DNA of 64,000 nt from Escherichia coli (GCF_048403405.1 NZ_CP183135.1), one strand, 5' to 3'. Counted from the first letter of the stretch, positions 3,181 through 25,402 are shown. The notes: generated by a model from the sequence alone, not told the origin. Made by a program: numbers and translations.

Positions 3181-3329
3181 GGTGATGCGTGCACTACGCA
3201 AAGGCCAGGCCTCAGCATTTTATTATGGTGATCCCCTGGGCGAAATGCGCCTGGTAAGCAGAGTTTTTGAAATGTAAGGCCTTTGAATAAGACAAAAGGC
3301 TGCCTCATCGCTAACTTTGCAACAGTGCC
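3181..3329 (+). mobile_element. IS26 right-end remnant (149 bp) abutting the IS10 outside end
   Basis: Sequence GGTGATGCGTGCACTACGCAAAGGCCAGG...CGCTAACTTTGCAACAGTGCC is identical to the 3' end of the two complete IS26 copies in this window. Confidence 0.85.
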
Positions 3330-14357: not shown

Positions 14358-15808
<1,451 letters not shown>

Positions 15809-15819
15809 ATTATCCCACG

Positions 15820-18228
15820 CTAAGACTGTTTTTTGTACAATATGGTGTCGACTGTGCGTAATGAGCGGTATTTTCCGGATCCCAGCTTAAGATTATTACG
15901 CCAGACGTAATCTCCACTCAGATTGATATGTTCCCAGCCCAGGGGAGAAAGATGAGATACCAGTTGCTCATTTATCGGGATACCTTTTCGTTTTAGTGAC
16001 TCAATAGCTCTTTCTATATATACCGTGTTCCACAACGTGATCGCCGCTGTCAGTAACGTCAGCCCGCTGGCGCGGTAACTCTGATTCTCCAGCCCACGAT
16101 CCCTTATTTCACCCAGACGGTGCATAAAGACCGCTCGCGCAAGGGCATTACGGGCCTCACCCTTATTCAGCCCCGCCTGTACGCGTCGGCGCAGACCGGG
16201 ATCACGGAACCAGTCCAGCATAAATAGTGTCCGCTCAATGCGGCCAATCTCTCTCAGCGCTTTGGCAAGTCCATTCTGTTTTGGGTAACTGGCTAACTTT
16301 TTCATCATCAGCGATGCGGTGACTGTCCCCTGCTTAATCGAGGTTGCCAGGCGCAATACCTCATCCCAGTGTGCCTCAATGTCTTTGATATTCAGGCTGG
16401 TTGTTGATATGACGGACTGAAGCCCCGGATAGCGTTCGGCCTTTCCATGAATAAACAGCCGCTTGTCATGAAGATCCCGGATCCTCGGCGCAAAAGCGAA
16501 TCCCAGCAGGTGCATCAGGGCGAAAACATGTTCAGTGAAGCCTGCGGTATCGGTGTAATGCTCGGTAATTTCCAGATCGCTTTCATGGTACAGCAGGCCA
16601 TCAAGCACGTGGGTTGAGTCGCGCACCCGGCTGATCACTTTGGCATAGAACGGGCTGTATTGGTCTGAGATATGCGTATAAATCTGCACGCCCGGCTCCT
16701 GACCATATTTAAGATTGACCTGACCGGCATAACGTCCGTGACTGCCTACCCGAAAGTTCTGCCCGTCTGACGATGATGTTGTCCCGTCGCCCCAGAATGC
16801 GGCCAGAGGCCGCGCTTTCTGAGCGTTGACCAGCTCGGCCAGTGCCGCTGAATAAGTTTCATCTCTGATGTACCATGCCTGAATACCTTCGAGTGACGAT
16901 TTTGTTGCCCCCGGGCAGGACTCCGCCATTTTTGTCAGCCCCAGATTGATGCCGTCGGCCAGAATGGTGGTCAGCAACAGTCTTCCGTCTTTTGGTCTGA
17001 CGTTATTATTTTTGAGGTGCGCGAAGTGACGCGTAAACCCCGTCCAGCTGTCCACTTCTTCCAGTATCTCTGTAATTTTCGGATGAGGAAGCATGCCATA
17101 AACCAAATCGGCAAAGGGCGAAACACCCGAAGGGACGCTGTTCTCCAGCGGAGTGATTTTTACTCCTTTATCTGAAATATCAACATCGGGCAAATCACCG
17201 GCAAGCGCCATCGCGTTAACTTCTTCCAGACGCGATGCAAGAAGCGTCATACGGGCCTGAAGATATGCCTGGCAATCGGTCTGAACGGCCAACTGTAACT
17301 GGTCATTGTGGCGGGATTTCTCAAACTCAGCAGTCGGGATGAGATAATCATCAAAATTTCTGTAGCGGCGCGATCCTTTTACCCAGATATCACCGGAACG
17401 TAGCGCCCCCTTGAGTTCATTCATTACGCAAAACTCGTAGTACTTGCGGTCGATTCCTGAAGGCGTGAGTACCAGTTTTCGCCAGCTTTCAGGGATAAAT
17501 CCTGTTGGCGCCGATAGCGGCACTTTACGAAGTTGTTTACGGTACATTTCCCTGATGGTGTCCAGCGCATCGCTGAGCGTCTGCGCCGCAGGTGTCGCCA
17601 TGAACTGCAATGCTGACAGCATACGCGGGGCGTATTTACGCAGCGTACTGTATTTTTCGGTGATCAGGTGAAGCGGGTCGAAATTGCCCTTACGGGACAG
17701 AAACCGTGTTTCTTCCAGGCTGTTGATGAACTCCTGCCAGGGAAGGACATCTTCTATCGCTGCCCAGGGATCTTCACCGGATTCTCTGGCATGCAGTAGT
17801 GCCTGACCGACAGTAAAATATTGCTTCAACTTGCTCTGGATGAGTTTCCCCGTCAGCTGAAGCCTCTCGGCTTGTGTGCGTTTTGCCTGGCTGAACAGAG
17901 TGCCCAGAATACGTTCGTGCAGTTCGATAACCTCATCAGTCAGTGTGGCCCGCGCTTCCTGAATGACACAAACCAGCGTAGCGTAACGTCTGACATCGGT
18001 GAATTTAGCCAGATCTCTGCTGCTCATTTTCCGGCCCTCACGCGCCAGTTTAAGCAACCTGTTCTGGTGAACGGAAAGTGCAATACCATCAGGCAACCCC
18101 AGCGCAGCGATGGAATTAAGCCGGTCGATATGTTGCAGCACATTTTTACCGTTTATTTTACCCGGAGGCTGTAGCAGCCATGCCAGACGGGAAGGTTGTT
18201 CACCCTCTGATATGAGCAGGCTGTCGAG
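15820..18228 (-). pseudogene. tnpA: Tn3-family (Tn21-subgroup) transposase TnpA, N-terminal ~190 codons removed by IS26
   Basis: The 999-aa track ORF is TnpA-like only downstream of the IS26 boundary; its first ~190 aa are antisense read-through of IS26. Confidence 0.85.
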
Positions 18229-19048
18229 GGCACTGTTGCAAATAGTCGGTGGTGATAAACTTATCATCCCCTTTTGCTGATGGAGCTGCACATGAACCCA
18301 TTCAAAGGCCGGCATTTTCAGCGTGACATCATTCTGTGGGCCGTACGCTGGTACTGCAAATACGGCATCAGTTACCGTGAGCTGCAGGAGATGCTGGCTG
18401 AACGCGGAGTGAATGTCGATCACTCCACGATTTACCGCTGGGTTCAGCGTTATGCGCCTGAAATGGAAAAACGGCTGCGCTGGTACTGGCGTAACCCTTC
18501 CGATCTTTGCCCGTGGCACATGGATGAAACCTACGTGAAGGTCAATGGCCGCTGGGCGTATCTGTACCGGGCCGTCGACAGCCGGGGCCGCACTGTCGAT
18601 TTTTATCTCTCCTCCCGTCGTAACAGCAAAGCTGCATACCGGTTTCTGGGTAAAATCCTCAACAACGTGAAGAAGTGGCAGATCCCGCGATTCATCAACA
18701 CGGATAAAGCGCCCGCCTATGGTCGCGCGCTTGCTCTGCTCAAACGCGAAGGCCGGTGCCCGTCTGACGTTGAACACCGACAGATTAAGTACCGGAACAA
18801 CGTGATTGAATGCGATCATGGCAAACTGAAACGGATAATCGGCGCCACGCTGGGATTTAAATCCATGAAGACGGCTTACGCCACCATCAAAGGTATTGAG
18901 GTGATGCGTGCACTACGCAAAGGCCAGGCCTCAGCATTTTATTATGGTGATCCCCTGGGCGAAATGCGCCTGGTAAGCAGAGTTTTTGAAATGTAAGGCC
19001 TTTGAATAAGACAAAAGGCTGCCTCATCGCTAACTTTGCAACAGTGCC
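18229..19048 (+). mobile_element. IS26 copy 1 (820 bp)
   Basis: 14-bp IRs GGCACTGTTGCAAA at 18229 and ...TTTGCAACAGTGCC at 19048. Confidence 0.95.
18292..18996 (+). CDS. tnpA: IS26 transposase Tnp26
   Basis: [57 protein letters not shown]... Confidence 0.9.
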   Translation: MNPFKGRHFQRDIILWAVRWYCKYGISYRELQEMLAERGVNVDHSTIYRWVQRYAPEMEKRLRWYWRNPSDLCPWHMDETYVKVNGRWAYLYRAVDSRGRTVDFYLSSRRNSKAAYRFLGKILNNVKKWQIPRFINTDKAPAYGRALALLKREGRCPSDVEHRQIKYRNNVIECDHGKLKRIIGATLGFKSMKTAYATIKGIEVMRALRKGQASAFYYGDPLGEMRLVSRVFEM

Positions 19049-19094
19049 TTTAAGCGTGCATAATAAGCCCTACACAAATTGGGAGTTAGACATC

Positions 19095-19694
19095 ATGAGC
19101 AACGCAAAAACAAAGTTAGGCATCACAAAGTACAGCATCGTGACCAACAGCAACGATTCCGTCACACTGCGCCTCATGACTGAGCATGACCTTGCGATGC
19201 TCTATGAGTGGCTAAATCGATCTCATATCGTCGAGTGGTGGGGCGGAGAAGAAGCACGCCCGACACTTGCTGACGTACAGGAACAGTACTTGCCAAGCGT
19301 TTTAGCGCAAGAGTCCGTCACTCCATACATTGCAATGCTGAATGGAGAGCCGATTGGGTATGCCCAGTCGTACGTTGCTCTTGGAAGCGGGGACGGACGG
19401 TGGGAAGAAGAAACCGATCCAGGAGTACGCGGAATAGACCAGTTACTGGCGAATGCATCACAACTGGGCAAAGGCTTGGGAACCAAGCTGGTTCGAGCTC
19501 TGGTTGAGTTGCTGTTCAATGATCCCGAGGTCACCAAGATCCAAACGGACCCGTCGCCGAGCAACTTGCGAGCGATCCGATGCTACGAGAAAGCGGGGTT
19601 TGAGAGGCAAGGTACCGTAACCACCCCATATGGTCCAGCCGTGTACATGGTTCAAACACGCCAGGCATTCGAGCGAACACGCAGTGATGCCTAA
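19095..19694 (+). CDS. aac(6')-Ib-cr: aminoglycoside/fluoroquinolone acetyltransferase AAC(6')-Ib-cr
   Basis: [16 protein letters not shown]...; both cr substitutions visible (GDGRWEEE = Trp to Arg, TTPYGPAVY = Asp to Tyr). Confidence 0.9.
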
Positions 19695-19790
19695 CCCTTC
19701 CATCGAGGGGGACGTCCAAGGGCTGGCGCCCTTGGCCGCCCCTCATGTCAAACGTTGGGCGAACCCGGAGCCTCATTAATTGTTAGCCGT
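19695..19790 (+). other. attC recombination site of the aac(6')-Ib cassette (approximate)
   Basis: Imperfect inverted repeat ...GGGCTGGCGCCCTTGGCCGCCCC... between cassette genes, ending near GTTAGCC. Confidence 0.45.
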
Positions 19791-19824
19791 TAAAATTAAG
19801 CCCTTTACCAAACCAATACTTATT

Positions 19825-20655
19825 ATGAAAAACACAATACATATCAACTTCGCTATTTTTTTAATAATTGCAAATATTATCTACAGCAGCGCCAGTGCAT
19901 CAACAGATATCTCTACTGTTGCATCTCCATTATTTGAAGGAACTGAAGGTTGTTTTTTACTTTACGATGCATCCACAAACGCTGAAATTGCTCAATTCAA
20001 TAAAGCAAAGTGTGCAACGCAAATGGCACCAGATTCAACTTTCAAGATCGCATTATCACTTATGGCATTTGATGCGGAAATAATAGATCAGAAAACCATA
20101 TTCAAATGGGATAAAACCCCCAAAGGAATGGAGATCTGGAACAGCAATCATACACCAAAGACGTGGATGCAATTTTCTGTTGTTTGGGTTTCGCAAGAAA
20201 TAACCCAAAAAATTGGATTAAATAAAATCAAGAATTATCTCAAAGATTTTGATTATGGAAATCAAGACTTCTCTGGAGATAAAGAAAGAAACAACGGATT
20301 AACAGAAGCATGGCTCGAAAGTAGCTTAAAAATTTCACCAGAAGAACAAATTCAATTCCTGCGTAAAATTATTAATCACAATCTCCCAGTTAAAAACTCA
20401 GCCATAGAAAACACCATAGAGAACATGTATCTACAAGATCTGGATAATAGTACAAAACTGTATGGGAAAACTGGTGCAGGATTCACAGCAAATAGAACCT
20501 TACAAAACGGATGGTTTGAAGGGTTTATTATAAGCAAATCAGGACATAAATATGTTTTTGTGTCCGCACTTACAGGAAACTTGGGGTCGAATTTAACATC
20601 AAGCATAAAAGCCAAGAAAAATGCGATCACCATTCTAAACACACTAAATTTATAA
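19825..20655 (+). CDS. blaOXA-1: class D beta-lactamase OXA-1
   Basis: MKNTIHINFAIFLIIANIIYSSASASTDISTVASPLFEGTEGCFLLYD... 276 aa. Confidence 0.9.
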   Translation: MKNTIHINFAIFLIIANIIYSSASASTDISTVASPLFEGTEGCFLLYDASTNAEIAQFNKAKCATQMAPDSTFKIALSLMAFDAEIIDQKTIFKWDKTPKGMEIWNSNHTPKTWMQFSVVWVSQEITQKIGLNKIKNYLKDFDYGNQDFSGDKERNNGLTEAWLESSLKISPEEQIQFLRKIINHNLPVKNSAIENTIENMYLQDLDNSTKLYGKTGAGFTANRTLQNGWFEGFIISKSGHKYVFVSALTGNLGSNLTSSIKAKKNAITILNTLNL

Positions 20656-20792
20656 AAAATCTAATGGCAAAATCGCCCAACCCTTCAATCAAGTCGGGAC
20701 GGCCAAAAGCAAGCTTTTGGCTCCCCTCGCTGGCGCTCGGCGCCCCTTATTTCAAACGTTAGACGGCAAAGTCACAGACCGCGGGATCTCTT

Positions 20793-21233
20793 ATGACCAA
20801 CTACTTTGATAGCCCCTTCAAAGGCAAGCTGCTTTCTGAGCAAGTGAAGAACCCCAATATCAAAGTTGGGCGGTACAGCTATTACTCTGGCTACTATCAT
20901 GGGCACTCATTCGATGACTGCGCACGGTATCTGTTTCCGGACCGTGATGACGTTGATAAGTTGATCATCGGTAGTTTCTGCTCTATCGGGAGTGGGGCTT
21001 CCTTTATCATGGCTGGCAATCAGGGGCATCGGTACGACTGGGCATCATCTTTCCCGTTCTTTTATATGCAGGAAGAACCTGCATTCTCAAGCGCACTCGA
21101 TGCCTTCCAAAAAGCAGGTAATACTGTCATTGGCAATGACGTTTGGATCGGCTCTGAGGCAATGGTCATGCCCGGAATCAAGATCGGGCACGGTGCGGTG
21201 ATAGGCAGCCGCTCGTTGGTGACAAAAGATGTG
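20793..21233 (+). pseudogene. catB3: chloramphenicol acetyltransferase CatB3, 3' end removed by IS26
   Basis: [38 protein letters not shown]... hexapeptide-repeat CAT; homology stops at the IS26 IR at 21234. Confidence 0.85.
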
Positions 21234-22053
21234 GGCACTGTTGCAAAGTTAGCGATGAGGCAGCCTTTTGTCTTATTCAAAGGCCTTACATTTCAAAAAC
21301 TCTGCTTACCAGGCGCATTTCGCCCAGGGGATCACCATAATAAAATGCTGAGGCCTGGCCTTTGCGTAGTGCACGCATCACCTCAATACCTTTGATGGTG
21401 GCGTAAGCCGTCTTCATGGATTTAAATCCCAGCGTGGCGCCGATTATCCGTTTCAGTTTGCCATGATCGCATTCAATCACGTTGTTCCGGTACTTAATCT
21501 GTCGGTGTTCAACGTCAGACGGGCACCGGCCTTCGCGTTTGAGCAGAGCAAGCGCGCGACCATAGGCGGGCGCTTTATCCGTGTTGATGAATCGCGGGAT
21601 CTGCCACTTCTTCACGTTGTTGAGGATTTTACCCAGAAACCGGTATGCAGCTTTGCTGTTACGACGGGAGGAGAGATAAAAATCGACAGTGCGGCCCCGG
21701 CTGTCGACGGCCCGGTACAGATACGCCCAGCGGCCATTGACCTTCACGTAGGTTTCATCCATGTGCCACGGGCAAAGATCGGAAGGGTTACGCCAGTACC
21801 AGCGCAGCCGTTTTTCCATTTCAGGCGCATAACGCTGAACCCAGCGGTAAATCGTGGAGTGATCGACATTCACTCCGCGTTCAGCCAGCATCTCCTGCAG
21901 CTCACGGTAACTGATGCCGTATTTGCAGTACCAGCGTACGGCCCACAGAATGATGTCACGCTGAAAATGCCGGCCTTTGAATGGGTTCATGTGCAGCTCC
22001 ATCAGCAAAAGGGGATGATAAGTTTATCACCACCGACTATTTGCAACAGTGCC
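21234..22053 (-). mobile_element. IS26 copy 2 (820 bp), inverted relative to copy 1
   Basis: IRs at 21234 (GGCACTGTTGCAAAGTTAGCG...) and 22053; identical Tnp26 ORF on minus strand. Confidence 0.95.
21286..21990 (-). CDS. tnpA: IS26 transposase Tnp26
   Basis: Same 234-aa protein as copy 1. Confidence 0.9.
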
Positions 22054-22389
22054 CCATCAGGGACAAAGATCTGGCTGGTCGCTGGCATCACCGATATGAG
22101 AAACGGCTTCAACGGCCTGGCGGCAAAGGTGCAGACGACGCTGAAAGACGATCCGATGTCAGGTCACGTTTTTATCTTCCGTGGGCGTAATGGCAGTCAG
22201 GTAAAGCTCCTCTGGTCTACCGGCGATGGACTGTGTCTGCTGACCAAACGGCTGGAGCGCGGCCGCTTCGCCTGGCCGTCAGCCCGGGATGGCAAAGTGT
22301 TCCTCACACCGGCACAGCTGGCGATGCTCCTTGAAGGTATCGACTGGCGGCAGCCTAAAAGACTGCTTACGTCCCTGACTATGTTGTAA
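22054..22389 (+). pseudogene. tnpB: IS66-family TnpB (Orf2), first codons removed by IS26
   Basis: ...WLVAGITDMRNGFNGLAAKVQTTLKDDPMSGHVFIFRGRNGSQVKLLWSTGDGLCLLTKRLERGRF... Confidence 0.8.
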
Positions 22390-23271
22390 GCCTCTTTATC
22401 CTGGTCGACGCTGAATGAGCCTGGTAATATACCCGGTATGAGCAGCTCACTTCCTGACGATATCAATGCACTGAAACGTCTCCTTGCCGAACAGGAGGCG
22501 CTGAACCGTGCCCTGCTGGAAAAGCTGAACGAGCGTGAACGCGAAATAGACCATCTGCAGGCGCAGCTGGATAAACTCCGCCGGATGAACTTCGGCAGTC
22601 GTTCCGAAAAAGTCTCCCGCCGTATCGCACAAATGGAAGCCGATCTGAACCGGCTTCAGAAAGAGAGCGATAGAGAGCGATACGCTGACTGGTAGGGTGT
22701 ATGACCCGGCAGTACAGCGTCCGTTGCGTCAGACCCGCACCCGTAAGCCGTTCCCTGAATCACTACCCCGTGACGAAAAGCGGCTGTTGCCTGCGGCGCC
22801 GTGCTGCCCGAACTGCGGCGGTTCACTGAGCTATCTGGGCGAGGATACCGCCGAACAGCTGGAGTTGATGCGTAGCGCCTTCCGGGTTATCCGGACGGTA
22901 CGGGAAAAACATGCCTGTACTCAGTGCGATGCCATCGTGCAGGCACCTGCACCTTCGCGGCCCATCGAGCGGGGTATCGCCGGACCGGGGCTGCTGGCCC
23001 GCGTGCTGACCTCGAAGTATGCAGAGCACACCCCGCTGTATCGCCAGTCAGAAATATACGGCCGGCAAGGTGTGGAGCTGAGCCGTTCACTGCTGTCGGG
23101 CTGGGTGGATGCATGCTGCCGGCTGCTGTCTCCGCTGGAAGAGGCGCTTCATGGCTATGTGCTGACTGACGGTAAGCTCCATGCTGATGACACGCCTGTC
23201 CCGGTGCTGTTGCCAGGCAATAAGAAAACGAAGACCGGGCGGTTATGGACCTACGTTCGTGACGACCGTAA

Positions 23272-25402
<2,131 letters not shown>

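Follow-up and report, generated by a model that had tools for sequence, protein, structure and literature searches.

The stretch of DNA analysed here, hereafter the window, comprises 64,000 nucleotides of Escherichia coli (GCF_048403405.1, NZ_CP183135.1) and carries a module of aac(6')-Ib-cr, blaOXA-1 and a truncated catB3 that lies between two inverted copies of IS26, with the remnant of another mobile element on either side. The features are, in order of position:

3181–3329, plus strand: 3' fragment of IS26 (149 bp, IS26 positions 672–820), in the same orientation as copy 1
14482–15807, minus strand: IS110-family (IS4321/IS5075-like) element of 1,326 bp, within the 38-bp terminal repeat of the Tn3-family remnant
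15820–18228, minus strand: Tn3-family (Tn21-subgroup) tnpA remnant (3' 2,409 bp), left border of the variable resistance region
18229–19048, plus strand: IS26 copy 1, complete, 820 bp; identical DNA is annotated in RefSeq as IS26 transposase, WP_001067855.1
19036–19064, plus strand: candidate promoter-like hybrid site, with a -35 TTGCAA in the IS26 IRR, a 17-bp spacer and a -10 CATAAT in the flank
19049–21233, plus strand: integron-derived passenger segment of 2,185 bp, comprising a 37-bp leader and, in this order, aac(6')-Ib-cr, blaOXA-1 and truncated catB3
19086–19694, plus strand: aac(6')-Ib-cr, long frame from 19086; the RefSeq call is 19140–19694 (AAC(6')-Ib-cr5)
19825–20655, plus strand: blaOXA-1, complete (profile blaOXA-1_like, 648.7 bits, positions 1–276 of 276)
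20793–21233, plus strand: catB3, truncated (chloram_CatB profile positions 1–147 of 210)
21234–22053, minus strand: IS26 copy 2, complete, 820 bp, inverted relative to copy 1
22054–22389, plus strand: IS66-family tnpB remnant (IS66_TnpB profile positions 1–90 of 90, from remnant residue 6)

The two 820-bp IS26 copies are 100 % identical and exact reverse complements of each other. The one transposase gene, tnp26 (18293–18997 in copy 1; 705 nt, 234 aa), lies on the plus strand in copy 1 and on the minus strand in copy 2, and in both copies it is the 3' (IRR) end of tnp26 that faces the module. Copy 1 accordingly has its IRL against the Tn3-family tnpA remnant and its IRR against the aac(6')-Ib-cr leader; copy 2 has its IRR against the truncated catB3 and its IRL against the IS66-family tnpB remnant. 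The perfect 14-bp terminal inverted repeat GGCACTGTTGCAAA is found at 18229, 19035, 21234 and 22040, and also at 3316, with zero matches expected in the window by chance. The four 8-bp flanks are CTGTCGAG, TTTAAGCG, AAGATGTG and CCATCAGG, and comparison of all four revealed no direct or reverse-complement match among them, so that both the opposite orientation and the unmatched flanks given in a preliminary description of this DNA proved correct. The 8-bp target duplication left by a simple copy-in insertion is missing at both window copies, which does not affect their identity as IS26, and the flank of the 149-bp fragment at 3181–3329 matches no other flank either.

Within the passenger segment, the aac product scores 427.9 bits against the profile AAC_6p_Ib in a profile search, the cr substitutions Arg and Tyr are readable in the AAC(6')-Ib sequence, and IS26 copy 2 leaves only the first 147 of the 210 codons of catB3. 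The 37-bp leader next to copy 1 is identical to the sequence upstream of qacEdelta1 and not to attI1; neither intI1 nor attI1 is present in the segment, and no integrase frame lies between IS26 and aac. Judging from the sequence, aac(6')-Ib-cr and blaOXA-1, which are devoid of an integron promoter, are probably expressed from a hybrid promoter that combines a -35 box in the IS26 end with a -10 box in the flank. The candidate site is directed into aac(6')-Ib-cr and matches the consensus at 9 of 12 positions, and hybrid promoters are a general property of the IS26 family (PMC7986276); the number of such promoter-like sites in the region is not above that in shuffled sequences.

On the outer side of copy 1, the tnpA remnant covers profile positions 174–954 of 954, with roughly 173–193 codons lost from the N-terminus at the IS26 according to two comparisons. 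The claim that copy 1 truncates a Tn21-type tnpA holds insofar as this is a truncated Tn3-family tnpA and "Tn21-type" is read as a subgroup label, in line with the Tn21-subgroup-like 38-bp end of the remnant, GGGGTCCGCTTGGAAAACGGAAATTATCCCACGCTAAG. Identity as the tnpA of Tn21 itself, however, was rejected, the remnant protein sharing only 60 % amino acid identity with the Tn21-type TnpA of plasmid p675SK2_B (RefSeq label TnAs3 family). Over its length, the remnant is 100 % identical in dozens of E. coli IncF plasmids. The IS4321-like element inserted in its terminal repeat was considered as a shared derived character and discarded as such: the copy in pPEC1013-1 differs at 39 positions and therefore represents an independent insertion at the same target. 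On the other side, copy 2 does truncate an IS66-family tnpB, as had been proposed. The remnant aligns with all 90 positions of the profile, beginning at its residue 6, and has thus lost no more than a few N-terminal codons; everything upstream of tnpB in that element is gone, and the tnpC downstream is split by IS100. This remnant forms the right border of the variable resistance region.

How common each junction is was assessed in PLSDB, where all counts are approximate, a few of the places counted being composites of two pieces. Both inner junctions have their canonical form in the window, i. e., IS26 IRR joined to TTTAAGCG upstream of aac(6')-Ib-cr on one side, and the usual cut position in catB3 followed by IS26 IRR on the other. 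Among the matches listed, about 1,093 records share the orientation that the window shows for the IS26 end beside aac (300-bp junction), against at most 27 with the opposite one; for the IS26 end beside truncated catB3, the corresponding figures are about 937 and zero. A directly oriented form is thus possible in at most 27 PLSDB records among the matches listed, for example, in the tandem array of pGN4549-1. These orientation counts indicate that inverted IS26 copies are the normal form of the module. The statement that the trio usually lies between directly oriented IS26 copies hence turned out to be the reverse of what is seen, with the inverted arrangement in about 1,000 PLSDB plasmids among the matches listed, and Shropshire et al. 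likewise described the IS26 genes flanking the module as being "in opposite orientation" (bioRxiv 10.1101/616961). The inner junctions of the window are identical to those of about 1,000 others among the matches listed, apart from a G run at the catB3/IS26 junction that is 1 bp shorter here than in five compared plasmids. This G run was also tried as a marker of loss versus gain in the history discussed below and rejected, since the common 4-G allele also occurs in pPEC1013-1, which is of the window type, and the lengths of homopolymers are prone to error.

The outer junctions, too, are old and shared, and delimit, within one IncF backbone, the variable resistance region: among the matches listed, that of the tnpA remnant with IS26 occurs in about 124 PLSDB plasmids and that of IS26 with the tnpB remnant in about 153. 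In pGN4143-1, another passenger lies between the same two borders and inverted IS26 copies; in pMB3176_1, only one IS26 is found between these borders, and tnpA has lost another 794 bp. Both copy-2 flanks around one IS26 were found in 13 PLSDB records among the matches listed, and both copy-1 flanks around one IS26 in only one such record and in 10 E. coli genomes. The exact window arrangement occurs in 10 complete E. coli genomes and a version with blaCTX-M-15 at the same border in 4.

Comparison with related plasmids, which had been suggested as a way to reconstruct the ancestral arrangement, succeeded in part in that it revealed a difference of one unit. The close relative pIso00041_01 (NZ_CP095156.1) differs mainly by an extra 6,205-bp unit consisting of IS26, a Tn2 remnant, ISEcp1, blaCTX-M-15 and a second Tn2 remnant, situated between directly oriented IS26 copies. 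When this unit is deleted in silico, pIso00041_01 becomes collinear with window positions 15808–26987; over 11,181 bp, the two sequences differ by 2 mismatches and 1 gap (99.97 % identity). In pIso00041_01 and three similar E. coli plasmids, the backbone, the two border junctions, the module and its orientation are as in the window; in contrast to the window, all four carry the additional 6,205-bp unit and are free of the IS4321-like insertion. As the difference from the close relative is one unit between direct IS26 copies, it corresponds to a deletion or an insertion, not to an inversion.

We therefore consider the locus very probably a standard IS26-bounded module in an IncF variable resistance region, with four junctions that were inherited separately and a copy 1 that is recombinant. 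The module is the only content of this region in an IncF plasmid (FIA/FIB/FII, iron-uptake, NDM-5-type), and the IS26 copy at either border has its IRL on the outer side, having cut into the Tn3-family tnpA at one end and into the IS66-family tnpB at the other. Each of the four IS26 junctions would be an old event with its own line of inheritance, which would explain why no two flanks form a target duplication. Copy 1 probably received its outer flank from the border IS26 and its inner flank from the IS26 that separates the module from the ISEcp1-blaCTX-M-15 segment in relatives such as pIso00041_01. Recombination between two direct IS26 copies, either RecA-dependent or catalysed by Tnp26 as we infer, would have removed one IS26 and 5,385 bp (the 6,205-bp translocatable unit) and left the window arrangement. 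Loss of duplications, targeted conservative integration and RecA recombination are all reviewed IS26 mechanisms, and lost duplications are expected after later IS26 recombination or deletion (PMC7986276). The same end product could also arise from a double crossover in both IS26 copies, or from stepwise deletions from a larger region.

The direction of this one-unit event inclines only slightly towards loss. In p675SK2_B, which is near-identical to the plasmid of the window, an IS26/AAAAATAG junction is retained together with the 3' part of a Tn2 tnpA, and this complements the AAAAATAG/IS26 end of the unit; when the two tnpA halves are joined at AAAAATAG, the reading frame is continuous and forms one HMM stretch. 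This orphan half favours an ancestor that bore blaCTX-M-15. The linkage of CTX-M-15, IS26 and aac(6')-Ib-cr is also said to be older and classical in IncF plasmids, which was counted against a gain.

In the opposite scenario, which we regard as possible but clearly less probable, this border originally carried the window type, and the IS26-ISEcp1-blaCTX-M-15 unit was added in relatives such as pIso00041_01 by Tnp26-mediated targeted conservative insertion beside copy 1. Two direct IS26 copies with no new duplication are exactly the structure left by conservative insertion, a documented mechanism (PMC7986276), and the window type is the commoner at this border (10 versus 4 complete E. coli genomes), which counts against loss. 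These genome counts nevertheless do not decide the direction, and p675SK2_B, whose Tn2 tnpA keeps the unpaired second half of the AAAAATAG duplication, speaks against a gain.

An unlikely alternative is that the present orientation arose by homologous flip-flop between the inverted IS26 copies, or that the module entered by exchange, through a double crossover involving both border IS26 copies. This is favoured by the AR_0014 plasmid, in which the same module is flipped against the same IS66 border with its inner junctions preserved (the one confirmed of two candidates among the matches listed), by an 11-kb segment between inverted IS26 copies that is inverted in pIso00041_01 as compared to p675SK2_B with the IRR flanks swapped, and by the different passenger of pGN4143-1. 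However, the orientation in the window equals that of its closest relative pIso00041_01 and of 13 PLSDB records among the matches listed, so that no flip is needed; events of this kind leave no scar by which they could be recognised in this plasmid.

The preliminary description had attributed the arrangement to an IS26-mediated inversion or replicative rearrangement, of which the IS26-mediated rearrangement stands as the cause of the missing duplications and the local inversion does not. It is very improbable that the module first lay between direct IS26 copies and was then inverted locally by intramolecular replicative transposition in trans. Such transposition can invert DNA and duplicate the IS (PMC7986276), the IS26 copies are indeed inverted and devoid of duplications, and a rare directly oriented form of the module exists. 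Yet a single event of this kind predicts that the right flanks of copies 1 and 2, or else their left flanks, are reverse complements, and this signature is absent, CGCTTAAA differing from CCATCAGG and CTCGACAG from AAGATGTG. Moreover, the inner junctions are those of about 1,000 plasmids among the matches listed, which as a rule have the inverted form, both outer junctions are older than this plasmid, and the occurrence of the identical arrangement in 10 complete E. coli genomes means that it was inherited and did not arise locally. Such an event would further presuppose a target in which the aac leader directly adjoined the IS66-family tnpB, an arrangement for which there is no support. Complementary junctions elsewhere, recommended as a check, are likewise absent: when all IS26 copies of p675SK2_B were examined, no partner turned up for any of the four window flanks, the copies outside the window on the plasmid itself being read only from such near-identical relatives. 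Since the module is flipped in relatives (AR_0014), an inversion in its deeper history is conceivable, although nothing in the window calls for one.

Two independent simple IS26 insertions whose 8-bp duplications later decayed are hardly credible: one IS26 of the sibling plasmid p675SK2_B does have an intact duplication, CCCAATGC, marking a simple insertion (the only one among all its copies), but each window copy parts unrelated sequences (tnpA from integron leader, catB3 from tnpB) and not the halves of one gene, the 100 % identity of the two copies makes decay of all flanks by point mutation implausible, and the inverted relatives likewise carry no duplications, whose presence there had been named as the sign of such insertions.

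The module, its inverted IS26 copies and the mismatched flanks are thus ordinary and already known; in regions of this kind, IS26 flanks that do not match are to be expected and do not point to an unusual event, and the importance of the finding goes little beyond bookkeeping. The module itself is among the commonest resistance segments in Enterobacterales: aac(6')-Ib-cr confers resistance to amikacin and tobramycin and low-level resistance to ciprofloxacin, and blaOXA-1 lowers susceptibility to penicillin-inhibitor combinations. What can be added is an NDM-5 IncF lineage that is without the blaCTX-M-15 unit adjoining the module in close relatives. Because the remaining IS26 pair is inverted, it can neither release the module as a translocatable unit nor on its own amplify it, for which a neighbouring direct IS26 would be needed; the module can only flip by homologous recombination. 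On a more speculative and rather doubtful note, the IRL-outward IS26 pair in the tnpA and tnpB remnants might act as a stable docking frame in the IncF lineage, in which passengers are exchanged, flipped and trimmed with the borders held constant, and from which blaCTX-M-15 would have been shed at about the time that blaNDM-5 was acquired elsewhere on the plasmid. If true, this would document IS26-framed cassette exchange via inverted repeats, outside the direct-repeat model of the translocatable unit.

Among known systems, a close counterpart is the module of blaCTX-M-15-type IncF plasmids and ST131 chromosomes, exemplified by TnMB1860 with its first island (Shropshire et al., bioRxiv 10.1101/616961); this module has the same genes and inner junction positions and likewise inverted IS26 copies with the IRR inward. 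The window differs from this type of module by the shorter G run (by 1 bp), by having no adjacent ISEcp1-blaCTX-M-15 or aac(3)-II units, and by its outer flanks, which are the Tn3-family tnpA and IS66-family tnpB remnants. The cassette order is that of the class 1 integron array aac(6')-Ib-cr, blaOXA-1, catB3 and arr-3, and hairpin-forming attC-like sequences follow aac and blaOXA-1 as in class 1 integron cassettes; when the attC regions were folded, the z-scores of the hairpins were unremarkable, and no evidential weight was given to them. Unlike that array, the module is without intI1, attI1, the Pc promoter, arr-3 and the 3'-CS, and its catB3 ends at codon 147. As to the IS26 pseudo-compound transposon or translocatable unit in the model of Harmer and Hall (PMC7986276), the neighbouring CTX-M-15 unit of the relatives behaves as one, and the flank pattern of IS26 copy 1 is that expected after excision or insertion of such a unit, whereas the aac(6')-Ib-cr/blaOXA-1 module, with its inverted copies, falls outside the direct-repeat requirement.

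Five matches to the IS26 terminal repeat GGCACTGTTGCAAA were found in the window, as compared to none expected by chance, and correspond to two complete copies and a fragment:

18229-19048, tnp26 on the plus strand, IS26 copy 1, complete (820 bp)
21234-22053, tnp26 on the minus strand, IS26 copy 2, complete (820 bp)
3181-3329, IS26 3' fragment (149 bp), the fifth terminal-repeat match

Each complete copy is the exact reverse complement of the other, with the 3' end of tnp26 (the right end, IRR) pointing inward in both. Their 8-bp flanks are CTGTCGAG / TTTAAGCG (copy 1) and AAGATGTG / CCATCAGG (copy 2), and no pair among these four matches directly or as reverse complement, in agreement with the flank sequences and the missing duplications reported in the preliminary description. 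The fragment adjoins an IS10/ISVsa5-type end beside IS1 and a tet(B) remnant of Tn10, and none of the other IS26 flanks matches the one found here (GTGCAGAC).

The 2,185 bp enclosed by copies 1 and 2 encode three genes, namely an AAC(6')-Ib that carries both cr substitutions (GDGRWEEE and TTPYGPA, read in the sequence) and matches its family profile, a full-length OXA-1, and a CatB that breaks off after residue 147 of 210 (profile match). Neither intI1 nor attI1 is present in this segment. The first 37 bp after copy 1 (19049-19085), which lead up to the start region of aac(6')-Ib-cr, are identical to the stretch that directly precedes the start codon of qacEdelta1 in the 3'-conserved segment of integrons, and the leader is thus a qacE-cassette fragment rather than attI1. 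The cassettes have lost their integron promoter, and aac(6')-Ib-cr may be served by a hybrid promoter at the left junction, where a promoter-like site pointing into the gene (19036-19064) combines a -35 TTGCAA in the IS26 end with a -10 CATAAT in the qacE-derived leader at a spacing of 17 bp; matches in the promoter consensus scan were not enriched over shuffles. Hybrid promoters are a known property of the IS26 family (PMC7986276). At the opposite end, the catB3/IS26 junction (21226-21240) reads GTGGGCACTG in the window, its sibling plasmid p675SK2_B, and pKP389-2, whereas five other plasmids have GTGGGGCACTG. The two versions differ by 1 bp in a G run at the outermost tip of the IS26 IRR, which may reflect either a genuine lineage marker, perhaps with loss of the final G of the IS end, or a sequencing error in a homopolymer.

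Since an IS26 junction (the IS end plus its neighbouring sequence) durably records the event that created it, 300-bp junction queries were searched against 72,556 PLSDB plasmids and compared with artificial versions carrying a flipped IS26 half. The IS26/aac junction was found as in the window in about 1,093 records and flipped in at most 27, and the truncated catB3/IS26 junction in about 937 and 0 records, respectively. Inverted IS26 copies with inward-facing IRR therefore bound this module in approximately 1,000 plasmids (Klebsiella, Escherichia, Salmonella, and others), whereas the rare flipped left junction reflects a direct-oriented module, for example, a tandem duplication in pGN4549-1. 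The earlier assumption that the trio usually lies between directly oriented copies is valid for mobile IS26 pseudo-compound transposons generally (PMC7986276), but is contradicted by these counts for this module, around which the inverted orientation is not unusual.

To the left of the module, copy 1 cuts a Tn3-family tnpA of which profile positions 174-954 of 954 remain. The truncated TnpA shares only 60% identity with the Tn21-type TnpA on p675SK2_B, while the 38-bp end of its element is Tn21-subgroup-like; the previous designation "Tn21-type" is thus usable as a subgroup label only. This 38-bp terminal repeat is itself split (halves at 14460-14481 and 15808-15824) by a further insertion:

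14482-15807, minus strand, IS110-family element (IS4321/IS5075-like, 1,326 bp) with a 334-aa transposase

The insertion is absent from p675SK2_B, pKP389-2, and pIso00041_01, and the variant element found there in pPEC1013-1 shows 39 differences, so the two are independent insertions into the same target. To the right, copy 2 has cost an IS66-family tnpB no more than a few of its N-terminal codons, together with everything upstream. In RefSeq this gene (22015-22389, WP_024193849.1) is annotated as complete, but only by virtue of a start codon in copy 2 that is in frame; the model thus begins with IS26 sequence, an annotation artefact.

The mismatched flanks of copy 1 are explained by comparison with pIso00041_01 (NZ_CP095156.1), a relative that shares the backbone, both borders, and the module in the same orientation, and that additionally carries, between border IS26 and module IS26, a Tn2 tnpA remnant split by ISEcp1-blaCTX-M-15. 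The IS26 pair around this segment is directly oriented. In silico removal of one IS26 and the 5,385-bp passenger (6,205 bp) yielded a sequence collinear with window positions 15808-26987 (2 mismatches and 1 gap in 11,181 bp), and the leftward remainder is 100% identical except for the IS4321-like insertion. Copy 1 accordingly joins the left-end (IRL) flank CTGTCGAG and the IRR flank TTTAAGCG of two pIso00041_01 copies, a combination that recombination between two direct IS26 copies would generate. The same pattern is also the state before conservative insertion of a translocatable unit beside an IS26 (PMC7986276). In either case, a one-unit difference accounts for these flanks without any inversion.

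As to direction, p675SK2_B carries, outside the region matching the window (NZ_CP027703.1 76936-78281), an IS26 followed by AAAAATAG and 519 bp of the 3' part of Tn2 tnpA, and the CTX-M-15 unit of pIso00041_01 ends in AAAAATAG followed by IS26, as does that of pGN4549-1. Joining the two tnpA pieces with one 8-bp copy removed restored an uninterrupted 930-codon frame, in which the Tn3-family transposase profile was matched in one stretch over the join. p675SK2_B thus retains the orphan half of a target duplication from the IS26 insertion bounding the CTX-M-15 unit, which suggests a CTX-M-15-bearing ancestor that lost the unit later, and we lean towards such a loss in the window lineage. Gain of the unit in relatives such as pIso00041_01 would fit the higher frequency of the arrangement without CTX-M-15 at the left border (10 versus 4 complete E. 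coli genomes), but the orphan half duplication points in the opposite direction, and a gain is rather unlikely. Other routes, for instance stepwise deletion or a double crossover involving both IS26 copies, are more improbable still.

If the module had been inverted in one step by intramolecular replicative transposition, the inner flank of one copy should be the reverse complement of the outer flank of the other, both being derived from the 8-bp target. The copy 1 and copy 2 flanks fit in neither pairing, and no partner for the window flanks was present around the IS26 sequences of p675SK2_B (five complete copies, one fragment). While IS26-mediated rearrangement as such stands, the proposed inversion from a direct-repeat ancestor does not, given the failed flank test and the prevalence of the inverted form. 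This plasmid family does show homologous inversion between inverted copies, as in the AR_0014 plasmid, where the module is flipped against the same right border with inner junctions preserved. Likewise, an approximately 11-kb intI1-dfrA17-aadA5-sul1-chrA-IS6100-mph(A) segment between inverted IS26 copies, outside the window, lies in opposite directions in p675SK2_B (NZ_CP027703.1 54877-67449) and pIso00041_01 (19015-31588 of its sequence piece L012), with swapped IRR flanks, clearly a homologous inversion. Such flips leave no scar, and one may have affected the module in its deep history, but none is needed for the window arrangement. Being inverted, the two IS26 copies of the window can neither release the module in the form of a translocatable unit nor amplify it; they can only flip it via homologous recombination.

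The outer junctions (tnpA remnant/IS26, about 124 PLSDB records; IS26/tnpB remnant, about 153) are each far commoner than the exact window arrangement (1 PLSDB record and 10 complete E. coli genomes), and the catB3 and tnpB junctions share one IS26 in 13 PLSDB records. In this backbone, the border copies are always inverted with IRL outward, regardless of content: pGN4143-1 holds a different 2.4-kb passenger, and pMB3176_1 a single IS26 with a further 794 bp of tnpA deleted (IS26 adjacent deletion). In pOXA1_020001, module and right border are kept next to a tet(A) region on the left. An identical 8.5-kb arrangement including both borders lies in a 5.03-Mb record (NZ_CM132303.1 392276-400776), suggesting that in E. 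coli 2020N08-094 the plasmid region has integrated into the chromosome. p675SK2_B (NZ_CP027703.1), to which the window is nearly identical, is an NDM-5 IncFIA/FIB/FII plasmid with iron-uptake genes including aerobactin and sit. The structure is a common and already described version of a very widespread resistance module and has been inherited within this NDM-5 IncF plasmid lineage.
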